In this document: in pieces, positions 2,740 to 26,745 of the stretch | Position numbering within the stretch: the stretch's first letter is position 1 | How the letters are laid out: each line of letters begins with the position of its first letter | Assembly: GCF_002087085.1 (NCBI RefSeq) | Contig: NZ_MWQY01000017.1 | Location: 1-64,000, forward strand | Direction: 5' to 3' | DNA length: 64,000 nucleotides | The notes under the pieces: generated by a model | What the model saw: the letters and a program-made list of their open reading frames with translations, nothing else | The model's database searches: none | Told to the model about the DNA's origin: nothing | Translations under genes and position numbers: made by a program

Positions 2740-3711
2740 TTATTTTTTCCAACCTGGTTCTATAATTTTTACCTTCGTGTTTTCTATCTTCATGTTCCTT
2801 TCCATTTTATTCGTAATTGACATAATTAATCCAATAACATTTTCATATGTTTCTAATAAATACTCTTGCGTAAAACAATCATTATAATATCGACTTGTAT
2901 CCCCTTTCTTAAATCTTTCTATATCCAATTCAATAGCATCAACAGGATCAATATCATTTACATACATCAATAATTTTCTTATGTCATGGGTCTTTGGATA
3001 TTGCATCTTTTGTGAAATATAGATTTTTAAACATTTTTCGACTGCCATGTGTAACTCATAAAATGCCAAAGACAATGCCATACTGTTTTTATTTTCTACA
3101 ATCAAGCTTGCTGATTTCTTTAAATGAACCATAATACTATCTTTAAGATCTTTATTCTCATTTTCTATTTTTGCAGTTAATAAATTTGCTCGTATTGTCC
3201 TAATTTCTCTGATATATTTTCTAAGCTTTTTAAGTAATTTTTGATTTTCTGATTCAGAAAGATTTACTATGTTTGGCGGATCTTGAATATATTCGATTAT
3301 ATTCTCACCTCTTTGAACTGAAGAAGGGTAAATGATCCAATAGCTGTTATCCTTATTATGTCGTGTTAATATATATGGAATCCTTACAAGAAAGAAATCA
3401 TTATATATTCTAACAACTGCATGTCCAAAATCTGATGGACGCTCCTTCAACAACCTTTTTCCATATCTCCTACGGTACCATTCAAGTACATTTTGATAGA
3501 TATACTTAAACCATATTGAGTTCTCAAAGTCTTGCTTATCTGATATGACACTATCACCTTTCTTAATTGTTATATAGTTTTCTATTAATGCATAAGTAGC
3601 ATAGTACGGTCTCACAGACATTGGCTTTGATTCTTTAAAGTAATCATCAATATCATTCAATGTATAACTTATTATTTTTATAAAGTCATCTTCTATTATC
3701 TCTTCCTTCAT
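2740..3711 (-). CDS. HEPN domain-containing protein (C-terminal HEPN, unknown N-terminus)
   Basis: LHMAVEKCLK...PKTHDIRKLL...SRY matches the HEPN AxEKxLK/THDL/RY pattern. Confidence 0.75.
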   Translation of the reverse strand: MKEEIIEDDFIKIISYTLNDIDDYFKESKPMSVRPYYATYALIENYITIKKGDSVISDKQDFENSIWFKYIYQNVLEWYRRRYGKRLLKERPSDFGHAVVRIYNDFFLVRIPYILTRHNKDNSYWIIYPSSVQRGENIIEYIQDPPNIVNLSESENQKLLKKLRKYIREIRTIRANLLTAKIENENKDLKDSIMVHLKKSASLIVENKNSMALSLAFYELHMAVEKCLKIYISQKMQYPKTHDIRKLLMYVNDIDPVDAIELDIERFKKGDTSRYYNDCFTQEYLLETYENVIGLIMSITNKMERNMKIENTKVKIIEPGWKK

Positions 3712-3747
3712 CCTACTTCACAACCACTGACCATGCAATTTTCTTAA

Positions 3748-3775
3748 ATCTTAATCTTTCTACCCCTTGTGTCAA
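3748..3775 (-). promoter_or_regulatory. sigma70-type promoter inside the HEPN cassette
   Basis: Minus strand TTGACA (3775-3770), N16, TAAGAT (3753-3748), ~37 bp upstream of the ATG at 3711. Confidence 0.6.
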
Positions 3776-3814
3776 CATAACATATTATAATCACCGCTTT
3801 TCCATACAACTAAC
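3775..3814 (-). other. Cassette 5' junction (G|TTATGT core site); possible attI-like or secondary insertion site
   Basis: GTTATGT at 3781-3775 is the exact complement of R'' (ACATAAC) of the attC closing this cassette. A second GTT box (GTTAGTT) lies at 3814-3808. Confidence 0.55.
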
Positions 3815-4363
3815 GTGAGAGAACAATCTTATGGCAAAACTCTTGAACGGCCACCTTCGCTTCACCAGTAAGGCATGAAACACTCATCCTGTCCAAAAGA
3901 TAAAGACCCATAATATGATATTTAGCACTACCGTACCTGTATCAACCGTTGTCGGTATGCTGCGCGCTAAGAGAAGTTGGGCCGGGGTATTTTATTGAAG
4001 ATCATACAAAAGTGGCAGCTGCAACAATAGTTATCTTTACATTTTAAAACGAAATCCCAATTCGTCAACCTCTAATTCTATTAAAATGTAAATTCCTTCA
4101 ATGTTTTGTACTATCTATGACGTTGTGCATAGGTAGTATTATTCAGCGGGTGGTTTCCTATACGAAAAAGGTATAATGGCCCCAGGCGATTCAAACAAGT
4201 CTCTCTTATTTTTATGATTTTTATACTCATACAAGGTCAAAGAATCATACCGTTATTATTCAAAAAGGGTCCCGCCTTCATGATCCTTGTGATAATCCCC
4301 AATGAAGATTAAAGGACAACAGGGAAAGAAGTACATAAAAAGAGACCTCATCAAAAAATCCGG

Positions 4364-4391
4364 TTGACATCTGACCTAATCCATATAAAAT
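4364..4391 (+). promoter_or_regulatory. sigma70-type promoter
   Basis: TTGACA-N16-TAAAAT just upstream of the ORF at 4405. Confidence 0.6.
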
Positions 4392-4404
4392 ATCTAAAAT
4401 TTAA

Positions 4405-5751
4405 ATGGGGTTCATAATGTTTAAAATAATAGAGTTAATAGAGAAATATAAACTAAGAATCTTTATAAGTTTGACATTAGTGTATGTTATGAGTTCTGCC
4501 GCCATAGTCAGGATCCCGGAAGTCAGCATCCAACATATAATATTTATTGCTGCTCCCACCGTGCTGTTCTCCCTGGTTCATTATATTGCAGGGATTACCG
4601 TGGGCCTTATATCCGCTGTAATCGTACTTGTCAGCTATTTTGAACAGCAAACAGTGGTTTTGACGGTAAATACCTATGTTCTGTATGGAGTAGGGGTCAT
4701 TATTAACACCTTTATGTCCTATCTTGTAGGGGCCTTGAAGGACGCGTATCTGCAGAATAAAAAGGCCTTCCAGGCGGTGGAGCAGTCAAAGGCGAAATAT
4801 CAGCATGTTGTCGACAACATTAAAGAAGGCATGGTCATCGTCGATACCGATGGATCGGTGATCTTCATGAACCGTTCGGCTTCGAACATGCTCAACCTGT
4901 CGATTAATAATCTTGGATTCAGCTTTCTCGACCTCTTTAAAATCAGCATACCCTTTGATGAAAAAAGTGGTATCGATGAGAGCGGGTTTGGATCGGTTAC
5001 AGAGTATGTCCTCGAATATGATAATCCGGAACTTGGTACACGGCAGATTGCGATTGCAGAAACGCCGTATGTAAGCCGGGAAGGGCGGATTTCCGGCAAT
5101 CTGAAATTCCTGCAGGACGTCACCGATACAAAGGAGAAGGAACTCACCATTGAACTTCTTAAAAAAAGAAATGAATACCTTTTTTCGGAGATGTACGACC
5201 GCATCGGCAATAATCTGACCACGATACATTCATACATAAATTTGTATCTTGGGAATGATGAGATACAGCTGTCGGAAGGATTGGACAAGGTGGATGATTT
5301 TATCCACACCATGGCGTTTATGAATTCCGAATTCCATAGAAATTTCCGGCAGCAGACAGTCAATCTTGAAAAATGCATACGCAAGATTGTCCATGATCTG
5401 TCGGAGAAGTATTATTACAGCCTGAACAACATTCGCATGGATCTGCTCCCCCGGGACATTCACCTGAATATCGCTATTCCCTTCAGCATTTTGCTTACTC
5501 TCATTGTTGCCACAATTTTTCTGATGCACAGGGATGAAATCATAAAACCCCAGGTTTCAATAAACACGAAGGAGAAGGATGGAAAAACCGTAATCATTTT
5601 TAGCGTAAACACAAAGGATTTCTTCGTAAACTTGAGAAAAAGCGATACCCGCAGGACTGAAAAAGATATTCTCTCTGCCCTGCTTATGCAGATACAGGGG
5701 AGAATTTCCATCCTGCCGAAGGCCGGCAACTCCATAAAGCTGGAGTTCTGA
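4405..5751 (+). CDS. Membrane PAS-domain protein with degenerate HisKA_2/HATPase region (probable pseudo histidine kinase)
   Basis: N-terminal TM helices; PAS (VVDNIKEGMVIVDTDGSVIFMNRSA); H-box-like EMYDRIGNNL lacks His; no N box or DxGxG. Confidence 0.65.
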   Translation: MGFIMFKIIELIEKYKLRIFISLTLVYVMSSAAIVRIPEVSIQHIIFIAAPTVLFSLVHYIAGITVGLISAVIVLVSYFEQQTVVLTVNTYVLYGVGVIINTFMSYLVGALKDAYLQNKKAFQAVEQSKAKYQHVVDNIKEGMVIVDTDGSVIFMNRSASNMLNLSINNLGFSFLDLFKISIPFDEKSGIDESGFGSVTEYVLEYDNPELGTRQIAIAETPYVSREGRISGNLKFLQDVTDTKEKELTIELLKKRNEYLFSEMYDRIGNNLTTIHSYINLYLGNDEIQLSEGLDKVDDFIHTMAFMNSEFHRNFRQQTVNLEKCIRKIVHDLSEKYYYSLNNIRMDLLPRDIHLNIAIPFSILLTLIVATIFLMHRDEIIKPQVSINTKEKDGKTVIIFSVNTKDFFVNLRKSDTRRTEKDILSALLMQIQGRISILPKAGNSIKLEF

Positions 5752-5769
5752 TTTTACCGGAACGCAGTC

Positions 5770-6210
5770 TCAATAATTATAGAAGATCTCTACACGATGG
5801 TCAGAGAATTTCTTGCTCCGCAGCCTGTCCAGAAGAGAGCGGGTGAACCCTCCCAGCTCATATTGATCAATCTCTTCAAGCTCTGCCCAGGCATATTCCT
5901 GTGCCTCATCGTTAAGGATTACCGCTGAACCTTCCGTTCTGCAGAGGTAATCGATAAAGATAAAATGTTTCGGTTCATGGAAGGTATCGCTGAAGATGCT
6001 TTCCTTGATTCCCAGGAGTTCCGCGGAATAGATCCGGAGGCCTGTTTCTTCCTGAATTTCACGCCGGAGGGCATCTTCCATTTTCTCACCCAGCTCTATG
6101 TGCCCTCCGGGAATGACCCATTTGTTTTCCCATTTATGGGATTTACAGAGCAGGACTTTTCCTGCCGGGTTCAGAATTACAGCGCCGACAGTTGGTTCGG
6201 GATAGCTCAT
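5770..6210 (-). CDS. NUDIX hydrolase
   Basis: Nudix box GGHIELGEKMEDALRREIQEETGL. Confidence 0.92.
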   Translation of the reverse strand: MSYPEPTVGAVILNPAGKVLLCKSHKWENKWVIPGGHIELGEKMEDALRREIQEETGLRIYSAELLGIKESIFSDTFHEPKHFIFIDYLCRTEGSAVILNDEAQEYAWAELEEIDQYELGGFTRSLLDRLRSKKFSDHRVEIFYNY

Positions 6211-6315
6211 ATACAGAGAATACTATCAGAGAGCTGAAGCTTGATGGAAGATCGAGATTCGACAATTTTGCCGGTGTATGAGATTGACGGCTTGTAATTG
6301 TTCAGGGAACAGTTT

Positions 6316-9300
6316 TCATGATTTCTTTCCTATCATCGTCAGCACCACAGGCAGGATGGCCAGCGTAATGAAGGTCCCGAAGATCAGACCATAAGCGATG
6401 GATATGCCGATCGGAACGAGCATCTGTCCGCCCACGCTTTTTTGAAAGATCAGCGGAGACAGACCGACCGCCGTAGTGATGGTGGTCATAATGATCGGCC
6501 TGAAGCGCTGCAGGGCGGCCTCCCTGATTGCAGCGACGCGGGGCATCCCCGAGTTCAGTTTTTTGTTGAAGCAGTCGATCAGCACGACCGAATCATTGAC
6601 GATGATCCCTGCCAGGGCGACACTTCCGAGGAAGGAGATGAAGGATACCTCGACACCCATGATCATATGGCCGTAGAGGGCCCCCAGAAAACCGAGGGGA
6701 ATCAGGGAAAGCACCAGAAGGGGTTCTGACCAGGTTTTCATCTGAAAAAGCAGCAGTGTAAACATGATCAAAAGCGCCATTGCCATGCTGAAGAGCATCG
6801 ACTTCATCATCCGGTTTACCAGTTCGGCTTGTCCCGCTTTTGAGAGACTGACTCCGTCCACCTGCGCGAGTACACGTGGCAGGATATCTTCGTTTATCTC
6901 CTTGAGCACGGTATTGAGGTCGGCGATGTTCGAATCGATACCGGCCATCACCCGTATGGAACGATAGCCGTTTTCCCTTCGGATCTGCTGGATACCCTGC
7001 CTCAGCTGAAAGTCGGCTATCTCCCTGAAGGGTACGATCCCTCCTCCAGGGGTATGTATGGGAAAGTCTTCTATCCGGCCGATGGAGTTCCGCTCGCTGA
7101 GGGGTAGACGCAGCACCACCGGTATACTGCGCCGTCCTTCCCGTACCTCGAACAGTTCACTGCCGTAAAACCCCATCCGCACCTGGTTGGCCACCGAGGA
7201 GGTATGCAGTCCCAGGGCCTGTCCCCTCCGGTTGAGGTGTATAAGAAACTCCTTCTGCCCCAGGGGCATGTCGTCGCGGATGTCCTTGACACCCTCGATT
7301 TCCCGCAGGGCCTTTTTAAACAGTTCGGCCGCTTTTTCCAGCTGTCCTTCTTCCTTTCCGAGGAAACGGAAGGAAATCGGGTCGCCTCCGAAAAAGGTAT
7401 CCTTCCCGATGATGACCGATTCGGTTTCGGGAATATCGGGAAGTGCGCGGGCAAAGGCGTTGGCGAATTCGTTGACTGAATAATCCCGTTCGTCGTTTCC
7501 GATCAGCAGCAGATAGAGTACCAGATGTGAACTGTCGCCCCAGCAGAGGTAGTCCAGGATGGCGTTTTCATGGTCCGGGTCGGATTGGGCCCATTCACGA
7601 CCGAATTCACGAGCCCGGCCCTCGAATTCCCGACCGATCCGGTTGACCACTTCGGCGTTGGTACCGGCGGGAAACTCGATCTCCGCGTAGACGTAGGGAG
7701 ATACCAGCTCGGGAAAGAAGGCCGCCTTGATATGGTTTCCCGCAACGGCACCGACCGAGATGAGAATGGCACCGGCTGCCACAGAGAGTATCAGTGCCCT
7801 GTTTTGCAGGGCGAAGTCGAGAAAGGGGGCGTATATCCGATTGATGAGAACGTCCTGGGCCCTTTCGAGACTCCTTCTGACACGGTTAGACCGGCGGGCT
7901 TCTTCGGTCAGCGCCCTGGAATGGGACAGATGAGCCGGCAGCAGGATGACCGCCTCGATTATGGAGAAGGTCAGACTCACGACCACCACTATCCCGATTT
8001 GCCGGACATATTTTCCCATGTCTCCGTAGATGAAAAAGTAGGGCGCAAAGGCGGCAATGGTGGTGGCCAGGGAGACCAGCACCGGCGGGAGTACGTCGAG
8101 GGTTCCTTCGATGGCCGCCTGCCTGCGCTCTTTTCCGAGACGTTTCCAGTGATCATAGATGCTCTCGCCGATGACGATGCCGTCGTCCACCAGTATCCCC
8201 ACGATAACTATCATGCCGAAAAGGGACATCTCGTTGATGGTCATATCCATGGTCCATTCCAGAAAGAGCAATCCCATAAAGGAGATCGGAATGCCCATGG
8301 CCACCCAGAAGGAGACCCGACTGTTCAGGAACAGACCCAGGACCAGCAGTACCAGGAGAAGTCCGCCGATGCCGGAGACCATGAGGGTGTTCAAGCGTTC
8401 GTTAAGTTCTTCCACATCACGGATTGCGACCCGGTAGCTTAAAATACCTTCGTAGCGGCTGCGGTATTCCTCCAGTTGGCGGTCCACCAGGCGGGCGATG
8501 CCGATTACATCCTCTGTATTGCTGTACATGATGTGAAAGCCGATGGCCGGCTCACCGTTCATCCTGGTATGGACGGCGTTTTCCGCCCGGCCGCGGCGGA
8601 TGGTGCAGACGTCGCCGATCCGGACAGCGCGGCCCCCGCTCACCTTGACGACTATTTTCTCCAGTTCGGGGATGCTGGTCTTTTTCTCGTAGGTACGTAT
8701 CTGGATCTGTTCGTCGGTGGTCAGGACCGAGCCTGCTGTCAGATCCAGGCTGGAAGCACGCACGGCTGTATCGATCTCGTCCAGGCTGATGGAAAAACGC
8801 TCCAGTCCGCGGGGTTTGACTTCGATGATGATCTGTTCGGAGGGAAATCCCCAGGTCAGTATCTGGGTAACCTGCCCGCTGCGAATCAGTTCTTCCCTGA
8901 ACTCTTCAGCCGCCTGTTCGAGGGCCCTAAGGTCATCAGTGCCGTACATGAAGAGCAGCATTACCCGGTTCCACTCGGTCTCATGTACGATGACGGGGCG
9001 CTCGGCCTCTTCGGGATAATCGGGCAGGGTTTCCACCGTGGAGCGGACCTTTTCCATGAGGGTGTCCATGGGGTACCAGGGGGAAGTCTCCAGGCCGAAC
9101 CAGGCCGAATTGTCCCTGGAGGTGGCCGAGATGTTGACGATTCCTTCCAGGCCCAGGAGTCCTTCCTCCAGGGGCCGGACGATGTTTTCCTCTATTTCCA
9201 GGGCGGACGCCCCGCTCCAGGTAATATGTATGCTTATATAATCGAATTCGATCTTGGGCCAAATCCGTTTCTGCAGGTTCAACAGACCGAAGGTTCCGGA

Positions 9301-9372
9301 GGCGAAGATGAGGATCATCAGCCAGTTGGTCAGGTGACGGTTATCTATGAAGTAGCTTATGAAACGTTTCAT
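6316..9372 (-). CDS. RND efflux transporter permease (AcrB/AcrD/AcrF family)
   Basis: 1018 aa; GILVDDGIV and GIIVNDSVV TM motifs; RFRPIIMTT. Confidence 0.93.
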   Translation of the reverse strand: MKRFISYFIDNRHLTNWLMILIFASGTFGLLNLQKRIWPKIEFDYISIHITWSGASALEIEENIVRPLEEGLLGLEGIVNISATSRDNSAWFGLETSPWYPMDTLMEKVRSTVETLPDYPEEAERPVIVHETEWNRVMLLFMYGTDDLRALEQAAEEFREELIRSGQVTQILTWGFPSEQIIIEVKPRGLERFSISLDEIDTAVRASSLDLTAGSVLTTDEQIQIRTYEKKTSIPELEKIVVKVSGGRAVRIGDVCTIRRGRAENAVHTRMNGEPAIGFHIMYSNTEDVIGIARLVDRQLEEYRSRYEGILSYRVAIRDVEELNERLNTLMVSGIGGLLLVLLVLGLFLNSRVSFWVAMGIPISFMGLLFLEWTMDMTINEMSLFGMIVIVGILVDDGIVIGESIYDHWKRLGKERRQAAIEGTLDVLPPVLVSLATTIAAFAPYFFIYGDMGKYVRQIGIVVVVSLTFSIIEAVILLPAHLSHSRALTEEARRSNRVRRSLERAQDVLINRIYAPFLDFALQNRALILSVAAGAILISVGAVAGNHIKAAFFPELVSPYVYAEIEFPAGTNAEVVNRIGREFEGRAREFGREWAQSDPDHENAILDYLCWGDSSHLVLYLLLIGNDERDYSVNEFANAFARALPDIPETESVIIGKDTFFGGDPISFRFLGKEEGQLEKAAELFKKALREIEGVKDIRDDMPLGQKEFLIHLNRRGQALGLHTSSVANQVRMGFYGSELFEVREGRRSIPVVLRLPLSERNSIGRIEDFPIHTPGGGIVPFREIADFQLRQGIQQIRRENGYRSIRVMAGIDSNIADLNTVLKEINEDILPRVLAQVDGVSLSKAGQAELVNRMMKSMLFSMAMALLIMFTLLLFQMKTWSEPLLVLSLIPLGFLGALYGHMIMGVEVSFISFLGSVALAGIIVNDSVVLIDCFNKKLNSGMPRVAAIREAALQRFRPIIMTTITTAVGLSPLIFQKSVGGQMLVPIGISIAYGLIFGTFITLAILPVVLTMIGKKS

Positions 9373-10520
9373 TTTTCTTCGATTCGGCGAAGGGCCATTC
9401 CCTGGAGAGGAGACTGCAGCCGCGTAAACACGATTCTGCTTCCCTCCGGCAGCGTGGGAGCAAGGATGACAGTCTCGGACTGGGTGTAGAGTATCTCGAC
9501 AGGATATTTGACCAGGCGTCCCTCTTCGAAGGTATTGACCGTGCCGTCCGGGTTCAACAGGGCCCTGGGAAGAGCAAAGGCGGATTCGAAGCTTATACCC
9601 GGTATCTCGACTTCGGCGTAGTTGCCCGGAAAAAATCGCGGTTTAGAGTCCGGGTTTCGAAAGGCGATATGGACCTTCACCGTCTGCGACTCCTGCTGCA
9701 TGGTTTTGTCGACCCGTACCAGCCGGCCGGGAAGGGAAATGTCCCGCATTTCCCCGGGATAGACCAGTACCTCCTGCGTATCGGGATTTATCATTCCAAG
9801 TTCATCCCTACTGAGCGCTGCGGTCAATTCAAGATTGAGGGGGTCGGTCAGAGTGAACAGGGGTGCTCCCTGAGATATGTTGCTGTAAAGCGTGACCCCG
9901 TCGCCTTCCAGAACCCCGGGAAAAGGCGCCGTGATGCGATGGTATCCAAGCCGGATAGCAGCTTCCCTGACGCCGTAGTAGGCGGACAAGACCCCGAAAT
10001 TACTGGCCAGCAGCTTCTCCCGGTCGGATTCGACCTCTGGCAGGGGAGGGAGATCATCCGCTTCGGGGGATAGACGGGAAAAGAAATCCGACCAGCGGGA
10101 GTAGAGAGTTCCGTCTCCCTGGACTGCCGACAGCAGCGAGGCGGTCGATCGAATCAACTCCATCCGCGCCAGCGCCAGATTATTGGCAGCCTCTTCGTCG
10201 TCGATCAGGACCAGCTCCTGTCCGGCCTCCACCTCCAGACCGCTTTTCAGGCCTTCGAACGTATTGATGACCTTTCCGCCGGTCATGGCTGTCACGGTCA
10301 GCGATCTGGCCGAGCGGATGAAGCCTTCGCCTCTGATGATTACCGCCACCGGTTCATACACCAGCCTCCTGGTTTCAACCAGGCGGGCTTCCTCTTTTTC
10401 CGCGGAGGCATGGGGTTTGCCGGGATTGATAACAAGATAGACGGTCAGGGCAGCGCAAAGAAGCAGAACTGCCGCAGATGTCGTAACGGGGCGCTTATGC
10501 TTTTTTAAAAAACGTTTCAT
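9369..10520 (-). CDS. RND efflux periplasmic adaptor (membrane fusion protein)
   Basis: N-terminal anchor, GxV...G..V..GQ.L lipoyl-like half, ITAPFPG; overlaps the permease start; ATG 10520 has an AAGGAG RBS. Confidence 0.88.
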   Translation of the reverse strand: MKRFLKKHKRPVTTSAAVLLLCAALTVYLVINPGKPHASAEKEEARLVETRRLVYEPVAVIIRGEGFIRSARSLTVTAMTGGKVINTFEGLKSGLEVEAGQELVLIDDEEAANNLALARMELIRSTASLLSAVQGDGTLYSRWSDFFSRLSPEADDLPPLPEVESDREKLLASNFGVLSAYYGVREAAIRLGYHRITAPFPGVLEGDGVTLYSNISQGAPLFTLTDPLNLELTAALSRDELGMINPDTQEVLVYPGEMRDISLPGRLVRVDKTMQQESQTVKVHIAFRNPDSKPRFFPGNYAEVEIPGISFESAFALPRALLNPDGTVNTFEEGRLVKYPVEILYTQSETVILAPTLPEGSRIVFTRLQSPLQGMALRRIEEK

Positions 10521-10842
10521 AAATTCTCCTTTTTTGTTAAAAAAAGGCAAGGCTGTTTGTTGTAATGAAAGATCACAGCTGTAAAAAAAGGGTGCATCAA
10601 TTATCTGCTCTCCGGCTGAATCAATTACCCGCTGGGAGATCAGATATTCGAAAGCATAGCAGTATTTTAGGACTGATTCTACAGGTGTTTTCGAGATGTG
10701 AATTCCAGAGGATCCTTACAGCCCATGACTCCAACCGTTATTACAATAAGTACTAAACCTGCATTAACATGGTATCAATGCTTATTGCACCACTTAACGG
10801 GCAACAATCCGCGTAAAAAAAGGACGCAATTGCGGTATATTC

Positions 10843-19117: not shown

Positions 19118-19203
19118 ATACGGACGGGAGACCGGGAAGGTATTGTCTGTAGCGAAAAACGGTGTTCCGGGCATATCCCCGGGTACGTGCAGGAGGGGTA
19201 AGT

Positions 19204-21234
19204 ATGAAATTAAAAGCTAATGTAATCCTGCTGTTGGCTGTAATGGTGTTTTTATTCGCTTCGGTGAGTATTCCGTATACTCTTATACAGGTCAGTAAAA
19301 TCCGAAACGCCGCCTTGCACTCAAGCGTTGAAACGATCAGGTCTGAACTGAAGCAGGCATTGAGCGCGAAGGAGGATGTCTGGCTGACAAATGCTCTGCA
19401 GATTGCTTTTAATCCGATCATATCAGGTGCGATGGAGCAGGGGGATCGTCAGACCTGCATACAAATCCTGAACCATTACAGCAGTGTCTTTAAGGATAAT
19501 ACGGGTTTTAAAAATGTGCAGGTGCATTTGATCGACAGCCAGCTCAGGTCTTTTGTTAAATCCTGGGATCCTGACAGCTTTGGGGAATCCCTCGATTATT
19601 CCCCCGGCTATAAAAAGGTTGCTCAAAGCAGAAAACCTCTGGTAACCATGGAGGTTTCTTCAAAGGGCCTGCGCTTGAAAGGACTCTTTCCTGTTATTGT
19701 GGATGGAGTTTTTACTGGAATAGTGAACTTCGAAGGCGGCCTTAACTCCATAAAAAGATCACTGCAGGAATACAATACGGAATTCCTCTATTTCATGTCC
19801 AACGAGGATCTTTCCATAGGGAAAGAAATACAGGGAAGTCCGGGCATAGAAGGGTATACCCTGAGTCAGAGCGATTTTGATGAAACCTTTCTTGCCCATG
19901 TACAGCAGAAAGTGAATACCCCGGACGCACTGTCGGCGTATGAATTTGACGATGCCTATTTGACCGCTGCGGTGCCGATCTATGACAGTGCCGATACTCT
20001 GGCAGGGCTGTATTTCGTGGGAAAAAGGAGCAAAGAGGTAACAGCTCAGCTTGATGAAGCTACCCGGGTTATCACAGTTCTGTTAACGGTTTTTTCTGTT
20101 CTCTTTGTTTTTGTCGTCATTACTGTGCTGATTTTTCTTGTACGCACTGTTATACGTCCTTTGGCGGAATTTACCGCCAAAATCAATCAACTCGCCAGGG
20201 GGAATCTGTCCTCGAACTTCAGCGACGGAAAAGATCGAAGGGATGTGATAGGTATACTTACCCAGGCACTTCAGCAGATGCAGAACAGTCTGCAGTATAA
20301 AGCTGAAATAATAGAGAGCTTCGCTGAAGGAGATTTTTCTGTCGATTTTGAAAAAGAGAGCGAAGAGGACACCCTGGGTGAGTCCCTGATTAGTATGAAG
20401 CGTTCTCTGAACGGACTGATCGGCCACGTGGAGAACACCATAGATCAGGTCAACAGCGGTGCCGACCAGGTAGCCCAGGCCAGCCAGAATCTCAGCCAGA
20501 GTTCCACCGAGCAGGCCAGCAGTCTTGAAGAGATTACCTCCTCCGCCACAGAAATCAACAGCCAGTCAAAGAAAAACGCGAAAAATGCTGTTGAGGCGCT
20601 CAGCCTGGCAAAGCAGGCAACAAAGGATGCTGAAGACGGTAACAGGCAGATGCAGGAAATGGCCAATATCATGGATACGATCAATGCATCCTCCGATGCG
20701 ATCAACAAGGTGGTCAAGGTTATCGATGATATTGCCTTTCAGATAAATCTGCTGGCTTTGAATGCCAACATTGAAGCTGCACGGGCTGGTAAATATGGAA
20801 AAGGTTTTGCGGTTGTCGCCGAAGAAGTACGAAACCTTGCGGTAAAAAGTGCTGAATCAGTAAAGGAGACAACCCAGATGGTAAACGATACGGTGAGCAA
20901 CATAAAGGCCGGGAGCGATGCCGCAGCCCTCACTTCCAGGCAGCTGGAATCAATCGTTGAAGAATCCGGCAAGGTTGCTGAACTCCTCGACGATATAGCC
21001 AAAGCCAGCAGGGATCAGGCACAGGCCATCTCTCAGATTTCCGACGGTCTGGATCAGATTGAGCAGACGACCCAGGCAAATACCGCCAGTGCAGAGGAGA
21101 GCGCTGCAGCCTCAGAGGAACTTGCCGGTCAGGCGGATCATCTTCGCGGTCTTATTTCTCAATTCCGGCTCGATCGCCGCTACAGCGAAGCTGTCCTGGC
21201 CATTGGTTCAGACAGTGAATATGATGACACATGA
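19204..21234 (+). CDS. Methyl-accepting chemotaxis protein (Cache sensor, HAMP, MCP signal domain)
   Basis: Two TM helices; [40 protein letters not shown] 19204 after AGGAGG. Confidence 0.95.
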
Positions 21235-21246
21235 GAAAATGCTTTT

Positions 21247-21741
21247 TTAGAACAATGCAAGGGTACCTTTGATAAAATAAAAACCGATGACACCGCTTAC
21301 AGCGAGTTTAATCAGGATGGCCGCCATGGTTCCGGTGAATACCCCGAAGGCGGCTTTGAAGGGTCTGGATTCCGGTCGTTTCCAGATAAGTTCTCCTGCC
21401 AGGGCGCCCAGAAAGGTTCCGATTATGGTTCCGAAGGGCGGAAAAAAGATGGTACCTATAATCATGCCCGCAATGCTGCCCCGGACTCCCGCCTTCCCTG
21501 CACCGGAGAGGCGCGAGGCGGCCACGGGGAGCAGGGAATCAAAAAGCGCCGCCGCCAGGGATATAACTCCCAGCAGGATTATCAGCCACAGAGGGTATAT
21601 TTCCCATGATCCCGCCAGGGAAACCAGTATCAGTGAAACAAAGGCGACAGGAGGGCCGGGGAGTACCGGTGCAATGCAGCCGATGAGCCCTGCCAGGATA
21701 AGGAGACTGCCTGTAAGGGTGCTTAAGACAGCCGGGATCAT
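21247..21741 (-). CDS. DUF456 family membrane protein
   Basis: GLIGCIAPVLPGPP...GAGKAG...FFPPFG.IIG.FLGALAGE; ATG overlaps the upstream stop (ATGA). Confidence 0.8.
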   Translation of the reverse strand: MIPAVLSTLTGSLLILAGLIGCIAPVLPGPPVAFVSLILVSLAGSWEIYPLWLIILLGVISLAAALFDSLLPVAASRLSGAGKAGVRGSIAGMIIGTIFFPPFGTIIGTFLGALAGELIWKRPESRPFKAAFGVFTGTMAAILIKLAVSGVIGFYFIKGTLALF

Positions 21742-22769
21742 CGGGAGTTCCGGTGTGCATCGAGAAAGCCCGTCAGAAAATTCCTGACGCATTCTCCCAG
21801 AGTGGATGTATTGTACCCCCCTTCCTGGAGAATCAGGGTCGGAAGGTCCAAGGCGGCAAAGGCTGCACCGATTTCAGGATAGTCTGCCGTATCGAGTCCG
21901 AGTCCGCCGATGGGATCATCCCTGTGGGTATCGAAGCCCGCGGAGATAATCAGATAGGACGGTTTAAAGTCCCTCACCTTCGCGAGTATCCTGTCCAGTG
22001 ACGCCAGGTACTCTCTTTTTCCCGCTCCCTTGGGAAGCGGTTCATTATGGTTGGTCCCTGCGGCCTGACCCTTCCCGGTCTCCTCGGCATAACCCCAGAA
22101 ATAGGGGTACTCCGAGGAAGGGTCGCAATGAACCGAAGAGGTAAAAACCGACTTGACCTCCTCAAAAAACTCCTGGGTACCGTTTCCGTGGTGGTAGTCA
22201 ATGTCAACGATGGCGACAGTTCCGGAGGGCAGCAGAAACTCGGCCGCAACAGCGGCATTGTTGAAATAACAGTAGCCTCCGAAGACCCGGGGACCGGCAT
22301 GGTGTCCCGAGGGGCGGCACAGGGCGTATACGCATCTCTCGGTGCCCTCGCGGATCATTTCTGCTCCCGTCAGGGCACTTTCGGCTGAAGCCCGGGCCAC
22401 CTCGTATGTCCGTTTCTTGATGGGAGTTACCGCATCGGTGCACCAGATTCCGCCCCAGAGAGGTTCATGGACCTTTTTTTTGAGTCCCGCACCTTCTCCC
22501 GGAAAAAGATCTGGATAAAACTCCTCTTCGTCGTTGGCCAGCGAGGCGGAGGTGTTGCGAATGTAGTCGTGGTAGGGATGGAGGCGCGAGATCAGGCGTT
22601 CCGGGTAGTGCTGTGCCGTAACAAACTCGAAATCTGTCGATTCCCCCAGGGCCTCCTTTATGCTTGCCACCCGGAGGGGTGTGTCCTTCACTTCGTAGGT
22701 TTCAGGTCCGAGCTGGTATTTCCAGAAGGGGTTATGGAGACTGTCGTTGTATTTTTCAATGACTTTCAT
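21738..22769 (-). CDS. Zn-dependent histone-deacetylase-family enzyme, acetylpolyamine amidohydrolase-like
   Basis: ALCRPSGHHA, GGYCYFNNAA, DIDYHHGNGTQ, SAGFD, QEGGY. Confidence 0.9.
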   Translation of the reverse strand: MKVIEKYNDSLHNPFWKYQLGPETYEVKDTPLRVASIKEALGESTDFEFVTAQHYPERLISRLHPYHDYIRNTSASLANDEEEFYPDLFPGEGAGLKKKVHEPLWGGIWCTDAVTPIKKRTYEVARASAESALTGAEMIREGTERCVYALCRPSGHHAGPRVFGGYCYFNNAAVAAEFLLPSGTVAIVDIDYHHGNGTQEFFEEVKSVFTSSVHCDPSSEYPYFWGYAEETGKGQAAGTNHNEPLPKGAGKREYLASLDRILAKVRDFKPSYLIISAGFDTHRDDPIGGLGLDTADYPEIGAAFAALDLPTLILQEGGYNTSTLGECVRNFLTGFLDAHRNSR

Positions 22770-24912
22770 GAATCTTTCTCCCTTTGTTCAGAAGCTCAAT
22801 AAGCCTGTCATGGGGAATCGGCGGACACCAGCGTTGCTGCCTGCCGTTCATGCCCCCGGAACAGAAGACGGCATTCAGCACCGCCTCCTCAGTTGCCTCG
22901 ATTACCGCTTCGTAGACAATATTTATGTGATTGTCCGAGATACACTTCAGGTTGATAAAACTCCCGGATGAGCGTGCCACCCGTGGTTTCCGGTTGCCCG
23001 TACTGAAGGCGATAATAATCTCACCGCTTGTGGATGCGGCATAGGATCCGGTACGCCCCAGCCCCAGGGCCGCCCGCCGTGAGATACGGTTCAGCTGGCT
23101 GCTGATAAGGGGGACGTCCGTCGCCACCACGACAATAACCGAACCTTCAGATAACTCCCTTCGGCCGGAATGCTCAAACTCGGTATCGAGCTGACGTCCC
23201 ACTACGGCGCCGTCAATTGTAAGGTTCCGCATCCTGCCGAAGTTTGAGAGCACAAGTACCCCGATGGTAAAGCCGCTTCCTTCCGGCAGATCGAAGATTC
23301 GGGAGGAGGTACCGATTCCTCCGGCGAAATCGAAGCTGGTCATCCCGGTCCCGGCACCTGTTGACCCCTGGGCGACCGGACCGGGGGAGGCCGCCTCAAT
23401 CGCCTTTATGGCGTCCTGGGCGCTGCAGGTTCCGATTCGTACATCATTGAGAAAGGAATCGTCCGCTTCACCTACAACCGGAAGCACCACGTCGGTTTCA
23501 GTCCCCATGGTGGGGTATTTACGGCTCATGTGCTGAATTACGCCGGCGTGAACCCTGCCGACGGAGTGGGAATTTGTCAGGAGAATCGGTGTTTCGAGCC
23601 AGCCTGTCTCCAGAACCTGGGTGAGTCCGGACATTTCTCCCACGCCGTTAAGTACAAAGCCCCCTGCGGCTATGCGGTTTGCATAGGCCTGCCCGGCGGG
23701 TAGTACAGCGGTTACCCCGGTACGGATGCTGCTCGATTCGGTCTGTCCGGGTATCTGCACGTTGTCCTCGATCCTGGTCAGGTGACCGACCCGGACACCT
23801 TTGACGTCGGTAATCGCGTTTACAAGGCCCGGATTCATGCGGCCGATCTGGATTCCCAGCTCTCTCACGCTTGTTCGGGGAACTGTTGAAGGGTGCCTGT
23901 TTTTCTGGTTCTTCCTGGCGGGACGTATGGCCATACCGTAACGGCGTGAAGCGGAACGGATTATAAGCCGCATCACATCCCTGAACTCAAGTCCCCGTTC
24001 CCGTGCGGCGGTCATAAGGGATGCGTTGGGATGCAGACTGGGCAGGGGATTCAGTTCAATAAAGTAGGGAGTCCCGTCGGTGTGCAGACGAATATCCACC
24101 CGCCCGAGATCTGGACAGGTCATGATATCGAATACCTGCCGCGCCATATGCAGGACCGACCGCTCTTCGCTGCCGTCTATGCGGGCCGGACAGATTACCT
24201 GAACAGCCCGGGCCGCTTCGCCTCCCTGCTTCATGTCATAGTCGTAAATATTGAATTTGCCGCCGGTCCTTTCCAGGTCAAAGGTGTGTTCCACGATGTC
24301 GAGGATTTTCCCCGGGTATCCCTCAATAAAGGGCACGCTCAGCTCCCTTCCGGTAATGAACTCCTCCACAACCAGCCCCTCGGGATACTGGCTGAGCAGT
24401 TCCGCTATCCGCTGTTCTGCCTCTTCTTTTGATTCAACAACTGACCTTTGTGTAATGCCCTTGCTGGATCCTTCGGAGTTGGGTTTTATTATCAGGGGAT
24501 AGCGGAGTTCTTCATCGATATGGCGGTTTTTTCCGCTTATAAGGACACCCTTCGGAACCCGGATACCCCGGGAAGAGAGCACGGTCTTTGCCAGATGTTT
24601 GTCCAGGTTAAGGTGGAGAAGCGAGGCGTTTCCGCCGGTAAAGGGAATGCCCATCTGTTCATACAGGCCGGGGTAAAAGGCCTCTCTGGAACTGCCGATG
24701 GTGCCCTCGGCAAGATTGAAGATAAGGTCGGGTTCGCTCTCCACCAGGCGCTCGATAACCTGATGAGGATTCCCGCTCACCTCGACAACCGTAACAGTAT
24801 GCTGCAGGCTGCTGATGGCACGGTATATTCGCTCGATGTCCTTGGGACTCAGCAGTTCTGCGGTGGCTTCGGAGTCGTCGGTCCGCAGGTTATATGCGAC
24901 GGTGATCCTCAT
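22756..24912 (-). CDS. Fusion: D-Ala-D-Ala-ligase-like ATP-grasp domain + DmpA/peptidase S58 (P1) domain
   Basis: aa ~1-325: DLIFNLAEG, LDKHLAK, IIKPNSEGSSKGI, EEFITGRE, RVDIR, IELNPLP. aa ~345-710: NAITDVKGVRVGH, RTGVTA, GAGTGM, GS(V/I)IVVVATD. Confidence 0.88.
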   Translation of the reverse strand: MRITVAYNLRTDDSEATAELLSPKDIERIYRAISSLQHTVTVVEVSGNPHQVIERLVESEPDLIFNLAEGTIGSSREAFYPGLYEQMGIPFTGGNASLLHLNLDKHLAKTVLSSRGIRVPKGVLISGKNRHIDEELRYPLIIKPNSEGSSKGITQRSVVESKEEAEQRIAELLSQYPEGLVVEEFITGRELSVPFIEGYPGKILDIVEHTFDLERTGGKFNIYDYDMKQGGEAARAVQVICPARIDGSEERSVLHMARQVFDIMTCPDLGRVDIRLHTDGTPYFIELNPLPSLHPNASLMTAARERGLEFRDVMRLIIRSASRRYGMAIRPARKNQKNRHPSTVPRTSVRELGIQIGRMNPGLVNAITDVKGVRVGHLTRIEDNVQIPGQTESSSIRTGVTAVLPAGQAYANRIAAGGFVLNGVGEMSGLTQVLETGWLETPILLTNSHSVGRVHAGVIQHMSRKYPTMGTETDVVLPVVGEADDSFLNDVRIGTCSAQDAIKAIEAASPGPVAQGSTGAGTGMTSFDFAGGIGTSSRIFDLPEGSGFTIGVLVLSNFGRMRNLTIDGAVVGRQLDTEFEHSGRRELSEGSVIVVVATDVPLISSQLNRISRRAALGLGRTGSYAASTSGEIIIAFSTGNRKPRVARSSGSFINLKCISDNHINIVYEAVIEATEEAVLNAVFCSGGMNGRQQRWCPPIPHDRLIELLNKGRKIHESH

Positions 24913-24939: not shown

Positions 24940-26745
24940 CTACATTCCGGAGTATTCCGCGATCGCTCTCAGAAAATGGCTTCCGTACTTTGCCAGTTTT
25001 ACCTCGCCGACTCCGGGTATATCCAGCATTTGATCACTGTTCTGCGGCAGGCGGCTGGCCATGGCCAGAAGGCTTGTGTCGGGAAAAATCATGTAGGGGG
25101 GGAGCCCCGCCTGGTCCGCGAGTCTTTTTCGCAGGCCTCTGAGCACTTCGAAGAGCTGACTGTCATGCTTTTCCGGACGGCTTTTTATTCTATCCGAATG
25201 CATTCCATCCTCATGAAGCTGTCCGAAAACCTCGAGTTCTCCCCGCAGTACCTGCCTGGCTTTCCCGGTGGGGAGGAGGCTTCCGTGCTGCGGGTCCTGC
25301 GTCAGAAGGCCCTGCCGGATAAACTGACGGGAAAGATGAAACCACTGCCGCTTTGTGTATTCCAGTCCAATCCCGTAGGTAGAGAGTTGGTCATGCCCCC
25401 GGTCCAGAACCTTTTGGGACTTTGACCCCCGAAGGACATCGATTATGTGCCCCGCGCCGAAAATCCGTCCCGTACGAATAACACAGGAGAGGAACTTCCG
25501 GGCTGCCAGGCTGATGTTGTCCTGATGTTCTGTTTGTTTTTTTTCCCTGCTGCAGTTATCACAGTGTCTGCAGTTATCGCCTTCAAAAGCCTCGCCGAAG
25601 TAGGAGAGCAGGGGTATTCTCCTGCATATCTCGGACTCGGCATAATTTATCATTGCCTTCAGGTGCAGTTCCGCGGCTTTCTGTCCCTTTTTATCCTTTC
25701 CGGAGATGAAATATCGAATTGTCCGTATATCGCCGTAGCCGAACAGCAGAAGACAATGGGAATCAAGACCGTCGCGTCCTGCCCGTCCGATCTGCTGATA
25801 ATAACTTTCGATATTCTTGGGTAGATCACGGTGCAGGATAAAACGGATGTCCGGCTTGTCTATGCCCATACCGAAAGCGACGGTTGCAACCATTATCTGG
25901 ACATCGTCCTTTATAAAAGCCCGCTGGTTTGATCGGCGTTCTTCGTCGCTTAGGCCTGCATGGTATGGGAGCGCCAGGAATCCCCGGGACCGAAGCATAG
26001 AAGCCGTTTCATCCACCCTGCGGCGTGTGGCACAGTAGATTATCCCGGATTGATCCGGGTATTGCCGGATAAAGTCCAGCATCTGGGAATCCGGATCCGA
26101 CTTGATGCGTACCTCGAGGAAGAGCCCGGGGCGGTCAAAACCGGCGACAAAGACTTCCGGCCGGATCAGATTGAGGCTGCTGCAGATATCATGGCGTACC
26201 TGCTCTGTTGCAGTGGCCGTCAGGGCAATCCACACGCTCTTCGGGAATCGTGTACGCAGGGCGGCTATCTGACGGTATTCGGGCCTGAAATCGTGTCCCC
26301 ACTCGGAAATGCAGTGGGCTTCGTCTATGGCTATACAGGAGATATCCAGTTGCTCAAGAAACCCGGCAGTTCGTTCCTGCAGCAGGGTTTCCGGTGCAGT
26401 ATACAGCAGTTTTATCTCTCCACGGCTCAGCAGCCCCATGTTCTGACGGTATTCCTCAGCAGATAAGGAGCTGTTCAGACAGACGGCGGGTATACCGAGC
26501 TCCTTCAGCTGGGACACCTGGTCTTCCATCAGGGAGATAAGGGGAGAAACGACCAGAGTTAGTCCCTCCAGCACGAGGGCGGGAATCTGATAGCAGAGGG
26601 ATTTTCCACCCCCCGTGGGCATTACAACGAGGGTATCCCTGCCGGCGAGGACAGACCCGATAATTTCCTTCTGCAGCGGCCTGAAACTGTCAAAACCGAA
26701 AACCCTCTTGGCAATTTTTTTTGCCTCTGTTGTAGATCCCATCAT
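24940..26745 (-). CDS. recQ: ATP-dependent DNA helicase RecQ
   Basis: MPTGGGKSLCYQ, DEAHCISEWGHDFRPEY, ATVAFGMGIDK, RQC zinc site, HRDC. Confidence 0.96.
   Translation of the reverse strand: MMGSTTEAKKIAKRVFGFDSFRPLQKEIIGSVLAGRDTLVVMPTGGGKSLCYQIPALVLEGLTLVVSPLISLMEDQVSQLKELGIPAVCLNSSLSAEEYRQNMGLLSRGEIKLLYTAPETLLQERTAGFLEQLDISCIAIDEAHCISEWGHDFRPEYRQIAALRTRFPKSVWIALTATATEQVRHDICSSLNLIRPEVFVAGFDRPGLFLEVRIKSDPDSQMLDFIRQYPDQSGIIYCATRRRVDETASMLRSRGFLALPYHAGLSDEERRSNQRAFIKDDVQIMVATVAFGMGIDKPDIRFILHRDLPKNIESYYQQIGRAGRDGLDSHCLLLFGYGDIRTIRYFISGKDKKGQKAAELHLKAMINYAESEICRRIPLLSYFGEAFEGDNCRHCDNCSREKKQTEHQDNISLAARKFLSCVIRTGRIFGAGHIIDVLRGSKSQKVLDRGHDQLSTYGIGLEYTKRQWFHLSRQFIRQGLLTQDPQHGSLLPTGKARQVLRGELEVFGQLHEDGMHSDRIKSRPEKHDSQLFEVLRGLRKRLADQAGLPPYMIFPDTSLLAMASRLPQNSDQMLDIPGVGEVKLAKYGSHFLRAIAEYSGM

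Follow-up and report, generated by a model that had tools for sequence, protein, structure and literature searches.

The stretch analysed here, the first 64,000 nt of the forward strand of contig NZ_MWQY01000017.1 (RefSeq assembly GCF_002087085.1; hereafter the window), contains a gene in which an ATP-grasp ligase of the D-Ala-D-Ala ligase (Ddl) type is fused to an S58 peptidase of the DmpA/BapA type. The end of this fusion gene is overlapped by the start of a second gene, encoding a deacetylase of the HDAC family, and the two genes together are referred to as the cassette. The cassette is the real unit, consisting of two genes and self-contained, and it is tied to beta-lysine by three independent lines, namely adjacency to ablA and ablB, co-occurrence with ablB, and the company kept by its ligase subfamily. 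With moderate confidence it is proposed that the cassette is a horizontally mobile module acting on beta-lysine chemistry, in which an ATP-driven make-and-break enzyme and a deacetylase work on N-epsilon-acetyl-beta-lysine (NABL) or on beta-lysine itself.

The ligase-peptidase fusion

The fusion is encoded by a single uninterrupted open reading frame (ORF) of 718 amino acids (aa) on the minus strand (Table 1), the plus-strand frame over the same interval being full of stops. An initial annotation of the window had given the same coordinates and a single ORF, both of which stand; only the strand is corrected here. The four motifs on which that annotation relied are all present in the translation, KPNSEGSSKGI at residues 143-153, EEFITGRE at 183-190, IELNPLP at 285-291 and SEG/SVIVVVATD at 588-599 (the slash marks the predicted processing site). 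Both domains of the fusion that it described are likewise returned by Pfam, with Dala_Dala_lig_C (PF07478) at residues 129-318 (E=1.3e-30) and Peptidase_S58 at residues 365-694 (E=1e-103), the latter spanning profile positions 1-305 of 307 and scoring 347.5 bits against a gathering score of 23.9. A full-length AlphaFold2 model of the fusion, computed from a shallow alignment of 17 sequences, had a mean predicted local distance difference test (pLDDT) score of 49.6 and was not used.

A protein search with the fusion gave 2049 matches at E<=1e-3 among 7999 candidates scored. The best 120 relatives are 69-94% identical to it and 652-740 aa long (most of them 710-720 aa), and every one carries both Pfam domains; relatives appear in the databases under the names 'P1 family peptidase' or 'D-alanine--D-alanine ligase'. 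A genome scan, in which each species was represented by one genome, confirmed 97 stretches encoding the fusion, and the best 80 loci were analysed. Since the 120 best relatives are two-domain proteins and 60 full-length copies come from independent assemblies, the junction is not an assembly artefact. Nor is the fusion a singleton whose relatives are split, the other possibility raised at the outset, the 80 related loci bearing about 18 phylum labels.

Judged from alignments and a model of this half alone, the ligase half has the fold and the likely mechanism of a Ddl, yet is not itself one. Alignment to DdlB and to the genome's own Ddl indicates that all residues for ATP, Mg and catalysis are retained (K105, K143, E183, K228, R271, D273, E286 and N288), K144, S150, K215, R255, D257, E270 and N272 of E. 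coli DdlB corresponding to K143, S149, K228, R271, D273, E286 and N288 of the fusion. The AlphaFold2 model, from a 55-row alignment, reached a pLDDT of 90.7, and the best folds listed for it in the PDB are all Ddl, VanG or D-Ala-D-Lac ligases, with template modelling scores of 0.68-0.78 over about 330 columns. The three-domain ATP-grasp fold and the ATP, Mg and acyl-phosphate residues are thus common to this half, to Ddl (DdlB, 2dln/1iow; P. aeruginosa DdlA/DdlB, 8evv/8evy) and to VanA/VanG. Unlike these enzymes, it has a peptidase attached, is only 19-24% identical to them in sequence, and has lost the determinants of D-Ala use. The N-terminal first-substrate motif of Ddl (GG.S.E.EVS, the Glu15 motif) has no counterpart in the alignment to the genome's own Ddl, its place being taken by a conserved, subfamily-specific N-terminus; Tyr216 of the Ddl omega loop corresponds to Gln229, which is invariant in 17/17 fusions; and Ser281/Leu282 correspond to Ala297/Ser298. 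All 25 listed NCBIfam Ddl models score the fusion under cut-off, the best being NF002378 (152.9 bits, cut-off 243), with TIGR01205 at 131.1 bits (cut-off 245.65), and the genome has a separate true Ddl (G000:C45:51845-52870; 328.1 bits, cut-off 245.65). The scores far under every curated Ddl cut-off and the true Ddl encoded elsewhere speak against this half being a canonical Ddl, a further possibility raised in the initial annotation.

The closest PDB match of the peptidase half is 2drh (1.1e-79), PH0078 of Pyrococcus horikoshii, to which no function is assigned; DmpA (1b65, 2.4e-66) and BapA (3n2w, 1.2e-59) follow. All three have in common with the fusion a full-length S58 domain, the processing site, a glutamate (E482 in the fusion, Glu144 in DmpA) and a Ser-Gly-acid motif. 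The predicted processing site G590/S591, aligned to G249/S250 of DmpA and to the N/S site of BapA, and S629-G630-E631, aligned to S288-G289-D290 of DmpA, are both invariant in 17/17 fusions. The acid is Glu as in BapA, Ser-Gly-Asp being found in DmpA, 2drh and 5tzb. On these alignments the S58 half is predicted to cleave itself at G590/S591. In contrast to DmpA and BapA, the S58 unit of the cassette is never free-standing, being the C-terminal half of a ligase, and the predicted self-cleavage would leave the whole ATP-grasp enzyme on the alpha chain. Catalytic and processing residues are therefore complete in both halves by alignment to DmpA/BapA and to Ddl. The idea, put forward with the first description of this ORF, of one protein that makes and breaks an amide bond is likewise supported.

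The cassette, its boundaries and its spread

The best PDB matches of the partner protein are acetylpolyamine amidohydrolases (9gkz, 5.6e-59; 3q9b, 6.2e-58), and none of the curated NCBIfam models gives it a name. Its motifs GHH, DxDxHHGNGTQ, GFD..DP and EGGY align to both structures and are invariant in 32/32 partners. The likeness to acetylpolyamine amidohydrolases (9gkz, 3q9b and 6phr; E=5.6e-59 to 2.2e-55) extends to the HDAC fold, the tandem His, the Zn-ligand motifs and the catalytic Tyr motif. Unlike those enzymes, the partner is translationally coupled to a ligase-peptidase and tracks ablB-positive genomes, which suggests a substrate of the NABL type rather than a polyamine. Its start codon (ATG) falls within the final codons of the fusion, with a 14-nt overlap, and is preceded by a GGGAGA stretch.

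An HDAC orthologue was found by tblastn directly downstream of the fusion in 69/80 loci. As 10 of the 11 loci without one end at a contig edge, the pairing holds in 69/70 loci whose sequence continues beyond the fusion. Of the 63 loci with near-full matches to both genes, 53 have an HDAC gene that begins before the fusion ends; across the 63, the identities of the two proteins to the window copies co-vary (Spearman 0.85, n=63). The only locus with a full flank and without the partner, L070, carries a Bdellovibrionota label. There, a 697-aa protein with two tandem Ddl-like ATP-grasp matches (L070:4797-6890, plus strand) is followed on the same strand by the fusion (7001-9154), and an Omp85-like protein is encoded downstream on the opposite strand.

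All-against-all clustering of flank ORFs from the 80 loci identified no further conserved gene beside the cassette; apart from HDAC and ablA/ablB, the recurrent clusters were shadow ORFs over the fusion and HDAC genes. No transporter, resistance, regulator, uptake-system or polyamine-biosynthesis gene is conserved in these flanks. In the window, a DUF456 ORF and a RecQ helicase gene share the strand of the cassette and are tightly packed against it; they were considered as operon members and rejected, since they were found beside the cassette in 0/80 and 2/80 related loci, respectively. The true start codon of DUF456 is probably further downstream than called. There are no murein genes near the fusion in the window, counts of promoter-like and terminator-like sequences around the cassette are at the level of shuffled sequence, and no GC anomaly is seen over it.

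Table 1. Coordinates in the window of the cassette, its parts and the genes on either side.
Feature	Position	Strand	Basis or remark
Fusion gene, 718 aa + stop: Ddl-type ATP-grasp ligase, basic linker, S58 (DmpA/BapA-type) peptidase	22756..24912	minus	ORF list, translation, Pfam, 80 related loci
ATP-grasp ligase half, residues ~1-325	23938..24912	minus	Alignments to DdlB and the genome's own Ddl; AlphaFold2 model; fold search
Basic, poorly conserved linker, residues ~326-355 (about 30-40 residues)	23848..23937	minus	Translation; variable columns in alignment of fusions
S58 / P1-family peptidase half, residues ~356-718	22759..23847	minus	Pfam 1e-103; PDB matches
Codons of G590/S591, predicted self-processing site and Ser nucleophile	23140..23145	minus	Aligned to DmpA G249/S250 and BapA N/S
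Partner gene: HDAC-family / acetylpolyamine-amidohydrolase-like deacetylase, 343 aa	21738..22769	minus	Pfam Hist_deacetyl 1.6e-65; PDB matches
DUF456 membrane-protein ORF	21247-21792	minus	Overlaps HDAC 3' end by about 55 nt as called
RecQ helicase gene	24940-26745	minus	Ends 27 nt upstream of fusion

Phylum labels among the 80 loci include Bacteroidota, Thermodesulfobacteriota, Spirochaetota, Acidobacteriota, PVC phyla, Bdellovibrionota and others, and archaeal labels are absent; among the sources are complete chromosomes and cultured isolates, including those of Marinilabilia and Tangfeifania behind L003, L053 and L004. In a FastTree tree of 61 full-length copies (60 loci and the window), 31 changes of phylum label were counted, compared with a minimum of 17 and a shuffled mean of 39.7, and very short branches lie between different phyla. 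Because the tree mixes phylum labels across such short branches, it indicates frequent horizontal transfer of the cassette. Part of the mixing could be due to binning errors in metagenome-assembled genomes.

Several copies depart from the usual form. In one divergent cassette (G212:C364:1049-3160), from an ablB-positive genome in the order around G003, the fusion is only 55% identical to that of the window. In a metagenome contig (L099:603-3756) the ligase part appears to be spread over two ORFs, followed by the S58 part and then the HDAC gene; an assembly error or a frameshift may account for the split. The cassette match in G007 (C11:184195-186336) was reported with one internal TGA, and two ablB copies in the Acidobacteriota-labelled genome G038 (C31:11265-12050 and C23:8379-9164) contain one in-frame TGA each. 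These TGAs could represent sequencing errors, pseudogenes or recoding.

Links to NABL synthesis and to beta-lysine

NABL is a major compatible solute of methanogens and is regarded as metabolically inert. Its described pathway consists of the aminomutase AblA and the acetyltransferase AblB only, and is the reported subject of Pfluger et al. (2003). We know of no ligase, peptidase or deacetylase step in this pathway, only the two-step synthesis. After HDAC, the next commonest real neighbours of the fusion across the 80 loci are ablB, present in 6, and ablA, present in 4, which makes 7 loci in all. At these 7 loci the abl genes score above curated cut-offs, are co-oriented with the cassette and tightly packed, and carry at least five phylum-level labels between them. 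Two gene orders occur, ablA-ablB-fusion-HDAC and fusion-HDAC-ablA.

The association extends beyond adjoining genes. Among 79 cassette genomes, ablB was found above cut-off in 72 (47/50 and 25/29). In the genome of the window, ablA (768 bits, cut-off 525) adjoins ablB (290 bits, cut-off 205) on contig C21. As background, ablB was present in 4/151 genomes of the window's phylum and 9/151 of the order around G003, or 13/302 in total. The cassette was carried by two and three of these genomes, respectively, all five being ablB-positive, and by 0/289 ablB-negative background genomes. This background covers two lineages, within which related genomes are not independent, and three of its five carriers are already among the 80 loci.

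Around ablA-ablB of the window genome (L097, G000:C21:8000-18000, 3020-8500), a chemoreceptor gene (dCache_1 and MCPsignal) lies upstream on the same strand, and downstream, also on the same strand, is a gene for a 308-aa protein with a partial match to the 2-oxoacid dehydrogenase acyltransferase catalytic domain. In the window, too, the second gene past the cassette (19162-21234, opposite strand) encodes a chemoreceptor.

The third line comes from the ligase subfamily. A search with the ligase half alone returned 572 cluster representatives at E<=1e-30, the top 150 of which comprise 95 single-domain proteins, 53 with two or three ligase matches, one S58 fusion and one fragment. Pfam scans of 18 unusual representatives revealed two fusions of KamA to the ligase (784 and 744 aa), two of the ligase to a C-terminal GNAT domain (507 and 526 aa) and one of the ligase to a SET domain (460 aa), the five proteins being P0219, P0263, P0232, P0271 and P0148, respectively. 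The partners other than the aminomutase, GNAT and SET, act on amino groups, SET domains on lysine side chains.

Alignment of stand-alone ligase relatives was used to find 80 metagenome loci; a scan with the single closest stand-alone ligase, P0127, gave no confirmed locus. A KamA-family gene lies in the flanks of 34/80 of these loci, mostly adjacent and on the same strand. Since KamA-family matches occur at only four places in the 4.2 Mb of the window genome, a random window of ~13 kb is estimated to hold one about 1% of the time. When 18 of the KamA neighbours were sampled, 17 passed TIGR00238; 16 fit lysine 2,3-aminomutase best (448-536 bits against a cut-off of 525.4, 7 above it) and one fits glutamate 2,3-aminomutase best. 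The KamA call at L133, which is not adjacent to the ligase, had no curated match and was rejected as false. The flanking KamA genes and the KamA-ligase fusions bear out the pointer in the initial annotation to KamA-associated Ddl-like clades.

Two or three ligase domains are present in 38/80 metagenome loci. Five loci have the two parts unfused, as a tandem ligase gene with a separate S58 gene after it, identified by Pfam in L100, L101, L107 and L138 and by a custom hidden Markov model only in L151. The S58 protein of L107 is 46% identical to the S58 half of the fusion, with the same G/S site and Ser-Gly-Glu motif. That locus (L107:4908-9206, plus strand) reads arginase-family gene, tandem double ATP-grasp ligase (678 aa), stand-alone S58 (396 aa) and BacA, so that in this single example an arginase-type hydrolase stands roughly at the place of the HDAC gene in the cassette. 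The arginase and HDAC families share one metal-hydrolase fold.

A paralogous, tightly packed operon is present in the window genome itself, on contig C75 (L096, G000:C75:180000-194000; 4883-10737, minus strand). It encodes, in order, an HDAC-domain protein of 616 aa, a KamA-like protein of 468 aa, Ddl-like ligases of 368 and 338 aa and a GNAT protein of 159 aa, and contains no S58 gene. The first ligase is 30% identical to the ligase half of the fusion (E=3e-44) and has the same N-terminal signature. The HDAC domain is 42% identical to the cassette partner (E=9e-76) and is preceded by an N-terminal region of ~290 aa without a Pfam match. The KamA-like protein reaches 458 bits with the AblA model, which is under the cut-off. 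The same set of parts, aminomutase, acetyltransferase, ligase and deacetylase, therefore recurs, in what looks like a separate beta-amino-acid peptide pathway.

Proposed activity and alternatives

In the proposed scheme, the zinc deacetylase would remove the N-epsilon-acetyl group from NABL or from a NABL-containing amide, exposing a primary amine; NABL closely resembles N-acetylcadaverine and other acetylpolyamines in structure. The ATP-grasp half, by a Ddl-type acyl-phosphate mechanism in a rebuilt substrate pocket, would then form a beta-lysine amide, either beta-lysyl-X or X-beta-lysine. The S58 half, after cleaving itself at G590/S591, would attack an N-terminal beta- (or D-) aminoacyl amide with Ser591 and so reverse the ligation by hydrolysis. 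Overall, the solute would be switched reversibly, at the expense of ATP, from its free state to a condensed or deacetylated one and back, and the cell could thereby reshape its pool of beta-lysine and NABL. Of the substrates named in the initial annotation, a beta-aminoacyl amide is the best fit; D-aminoacyl peptides and aminoacyl-polyamines fared less well, the partner's likeness to polyamine deacetylases being the one point in their favour.

Several observations weigh against this scheme. We infer the substrates from context only, and the direction of ligation, the self-cleavage and the physiological role are proposals as well. The abl genes adjoin the cassette in only 7/80 loci, and in the window genome they lie on a different contig. 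Seven of the 79 cassette genomes have no ablB above cut-off; one of the seven scores 190.6 bits, just under it, and another is a contig-edge fragment. In three of these genomes ablA was sought, with none found in G009 and G018 and a weak match in G029. Genomes of this kind could be true exceptions or incomplete bins. Conversely, 8 of the 13 ablB-positive background genomes have no cassette, so that NABL synthesis can do without it. The solved relatives closest to the partner act on polyamines, not on amino acids. A deacetylase and an acetyltransferase in one operon look futile unless the deacetylase acts on a later intermediate, and joining an ATP-consuming ligase to a hydrolase that attacks the same bond wastes energy if the two are not reciprocally regulated. 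Finally, in an excerpt of PMC1224877, NABL is described as showing little or no turnover in methanogens.

One extension of the proposed scheme, rather doubtful in our estimation, is that the cassette acts as an osmolyte capacitor. When salinity falls, the deacetylase and ligase would condense NABL or beta-lysine to dipeptides or short oligomers; when it rises, the BapA-like half would release monomers for re-acetylation by AblB, the two directions being switched reciprocally by ionic strength. On that same doubtful premise, condensation would leave fewer osmotically active particles without export of carbon or nitrogen. A loose precedent, as excerpted from PMC1224877, is the fixing of cyclic 2,3-diphosphoglycerate into a retrievable polymer pool in a methanogen. 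If true, such a capacitor would represent a principle new to osmoregulation, and a beta-aminopeptidase would for the first time have a physiological role.

Among the alternatives to a make-and-break module, the one that survives best, unlikely as we judge it, is a biosynthetic line for a distinct small peptide of beta-lysine, either a specialised metabolite or a second solute. The acetyl group added by AblB would then be a transient protecting group, with the ligase coupling, the HDAC protein deprotecting and the S58 half trimming or maturing the product. Such a line would make sense of an acetyltransferase and a deacetylase that are co-oriented and tightly packed in 7 loci, provided that deacetylation comes after ligation. 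The C75 operon, which unites KamA-like, GNAT, HDAC and two ligases, is consistent with it. So are the multiple ligase domains in 53/150 representatives and 38/80 metagenome loci, which suggest stepwise peptide assembly, and the pairing in L070 of the fusion with a tandem double ligase and no HDAC. The cassette itself, however, has one ligase domain only and no conserved transporter, resistance or regulator gene beside it, a hydrolase fused to the ligase is easier to read as reversing the ligation, and no such product was found in the open-access literature.

It is improbable that the fusion makes and recycles an aminoacyl-polyamine or a D-aminoacyl peptide, with no involvement of beta-lysine and with the partner as a true acetylpolyamine amidohydrolase supplying the polyamine. 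The partner's best solved relatives are what this reading would predict, as is the proximity of the ligase fold to D-Ala-D-X ligases, and DmpA-type enzymes accept D-Ala amides. It leaves unexplained, however, the near-restriction of the cassette to ablB-positive genomes and the presence of the ligase subfamily beside, or fused to, lysine-2,3-aminomutase-like genes; genes of polyamine biosynthesis are not among the conserved neighbours, and the Ddl determinants for D-Ala are lost.

A catabolic or salvage role is held to be decidedly improbable. The deacetylase and the S58 half would degrade the cell's own or imported NABL and beta-lysyl peptides to beta-lysine, AblA would convert this to lysine, and the ATP-grasp half would play some minor part, for example activation for a subsequent step. 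In favour of such a role, hydrolysis accounts for two of the three activities, and NABL breakdown would naturally begin with loss of the acetyl group, by analogy with the deacetylation of N-acetyl-diaminobutyrate in the ectoine pathway. Yet the use of an external solute needs no ablB, and the cassette was found in 0/289 ablB-negative genomes; moreover, an ATP-consuming ligase with a complete active site is invariant in the cassette, and no uptake system is conserved nearby. That the fusion is a second cell-wall D-Ala-D-Ala ligase joined by chance to a D-aminopeptidase is scarcely credible, since the Pfam match, the Ddl-type nearest folds and the name given in some databases are set against Ddl scores far under cut-off, the lost D-Ala determinants, a true Ddl elsewhere in the genome and the lack of murein genes nearby.

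The make-and-break scheme preferred here has a precedent in glutathionylspermidine synthetase/amidase (GspSA), which unites an ATP-dependent amide synthetase and an amidase undoing the same bond in one polypeptide, with reciprocal regulation. The resemblance is functional only. The hydrolase of the fusion is a self-processing Ser hydrolase of the S58 family, whereas that of GspSA is a CHAP cysteine amidase, and Pfam reports no CHAP domain in the fusion; the order of domains is reversed, the substrates differ, and the obligatory deacetylase partner of the cassette is absent from GspSA. Compared with the AblA/AblB pathway, which the cassette accompanies in 72/79 genomes and adjoins in the same orientation in 7 loci, the cassette would add a ligase, a peptidase and a deacetylase to the handling of a solute for which the excerpt of PMC1224877 describes little turnover in methanogens. 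As far as an excerpt of PMC3543383 goes, just ablA/ablB are mentioned there as osmolyte genes. Open-access papers and preprints yielded nothing on the ligase-S58 architecture, on NABL deacetylation or on beta-lysine ligases, in agreement with the initial annotation, which had named no characterised protein of this architecture. Each domain comes from a known family; the pathway behind the cassette is uncharacterised.

Three complete active sites, of a ligase, an aminopeptidase and a deacetylase, in a mobile module nearly confined to NABL-capable bacteria imply an undescribed beta-lysine chemistry, which could consist in turnover, in storage in a condensed form or in a new peptide of beta-lysine. 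Judged by ablAB, NABL is also made by many anaerobic bacteria, for which the records suggest saline, marine or sediment sources. To our knowledge, the physiological role of S58 beta/D-aminopeptidases is still unclear. If the proposed activity is correct, it would provide these enzymes with a natural substrate, give a function to a large family annotated as D-Ala-D-Ala ligase (the 572 representatives) that is mislabelled in databases, and add a second fused make-and-break amide enzyme, built from folds different from those of GspSA.

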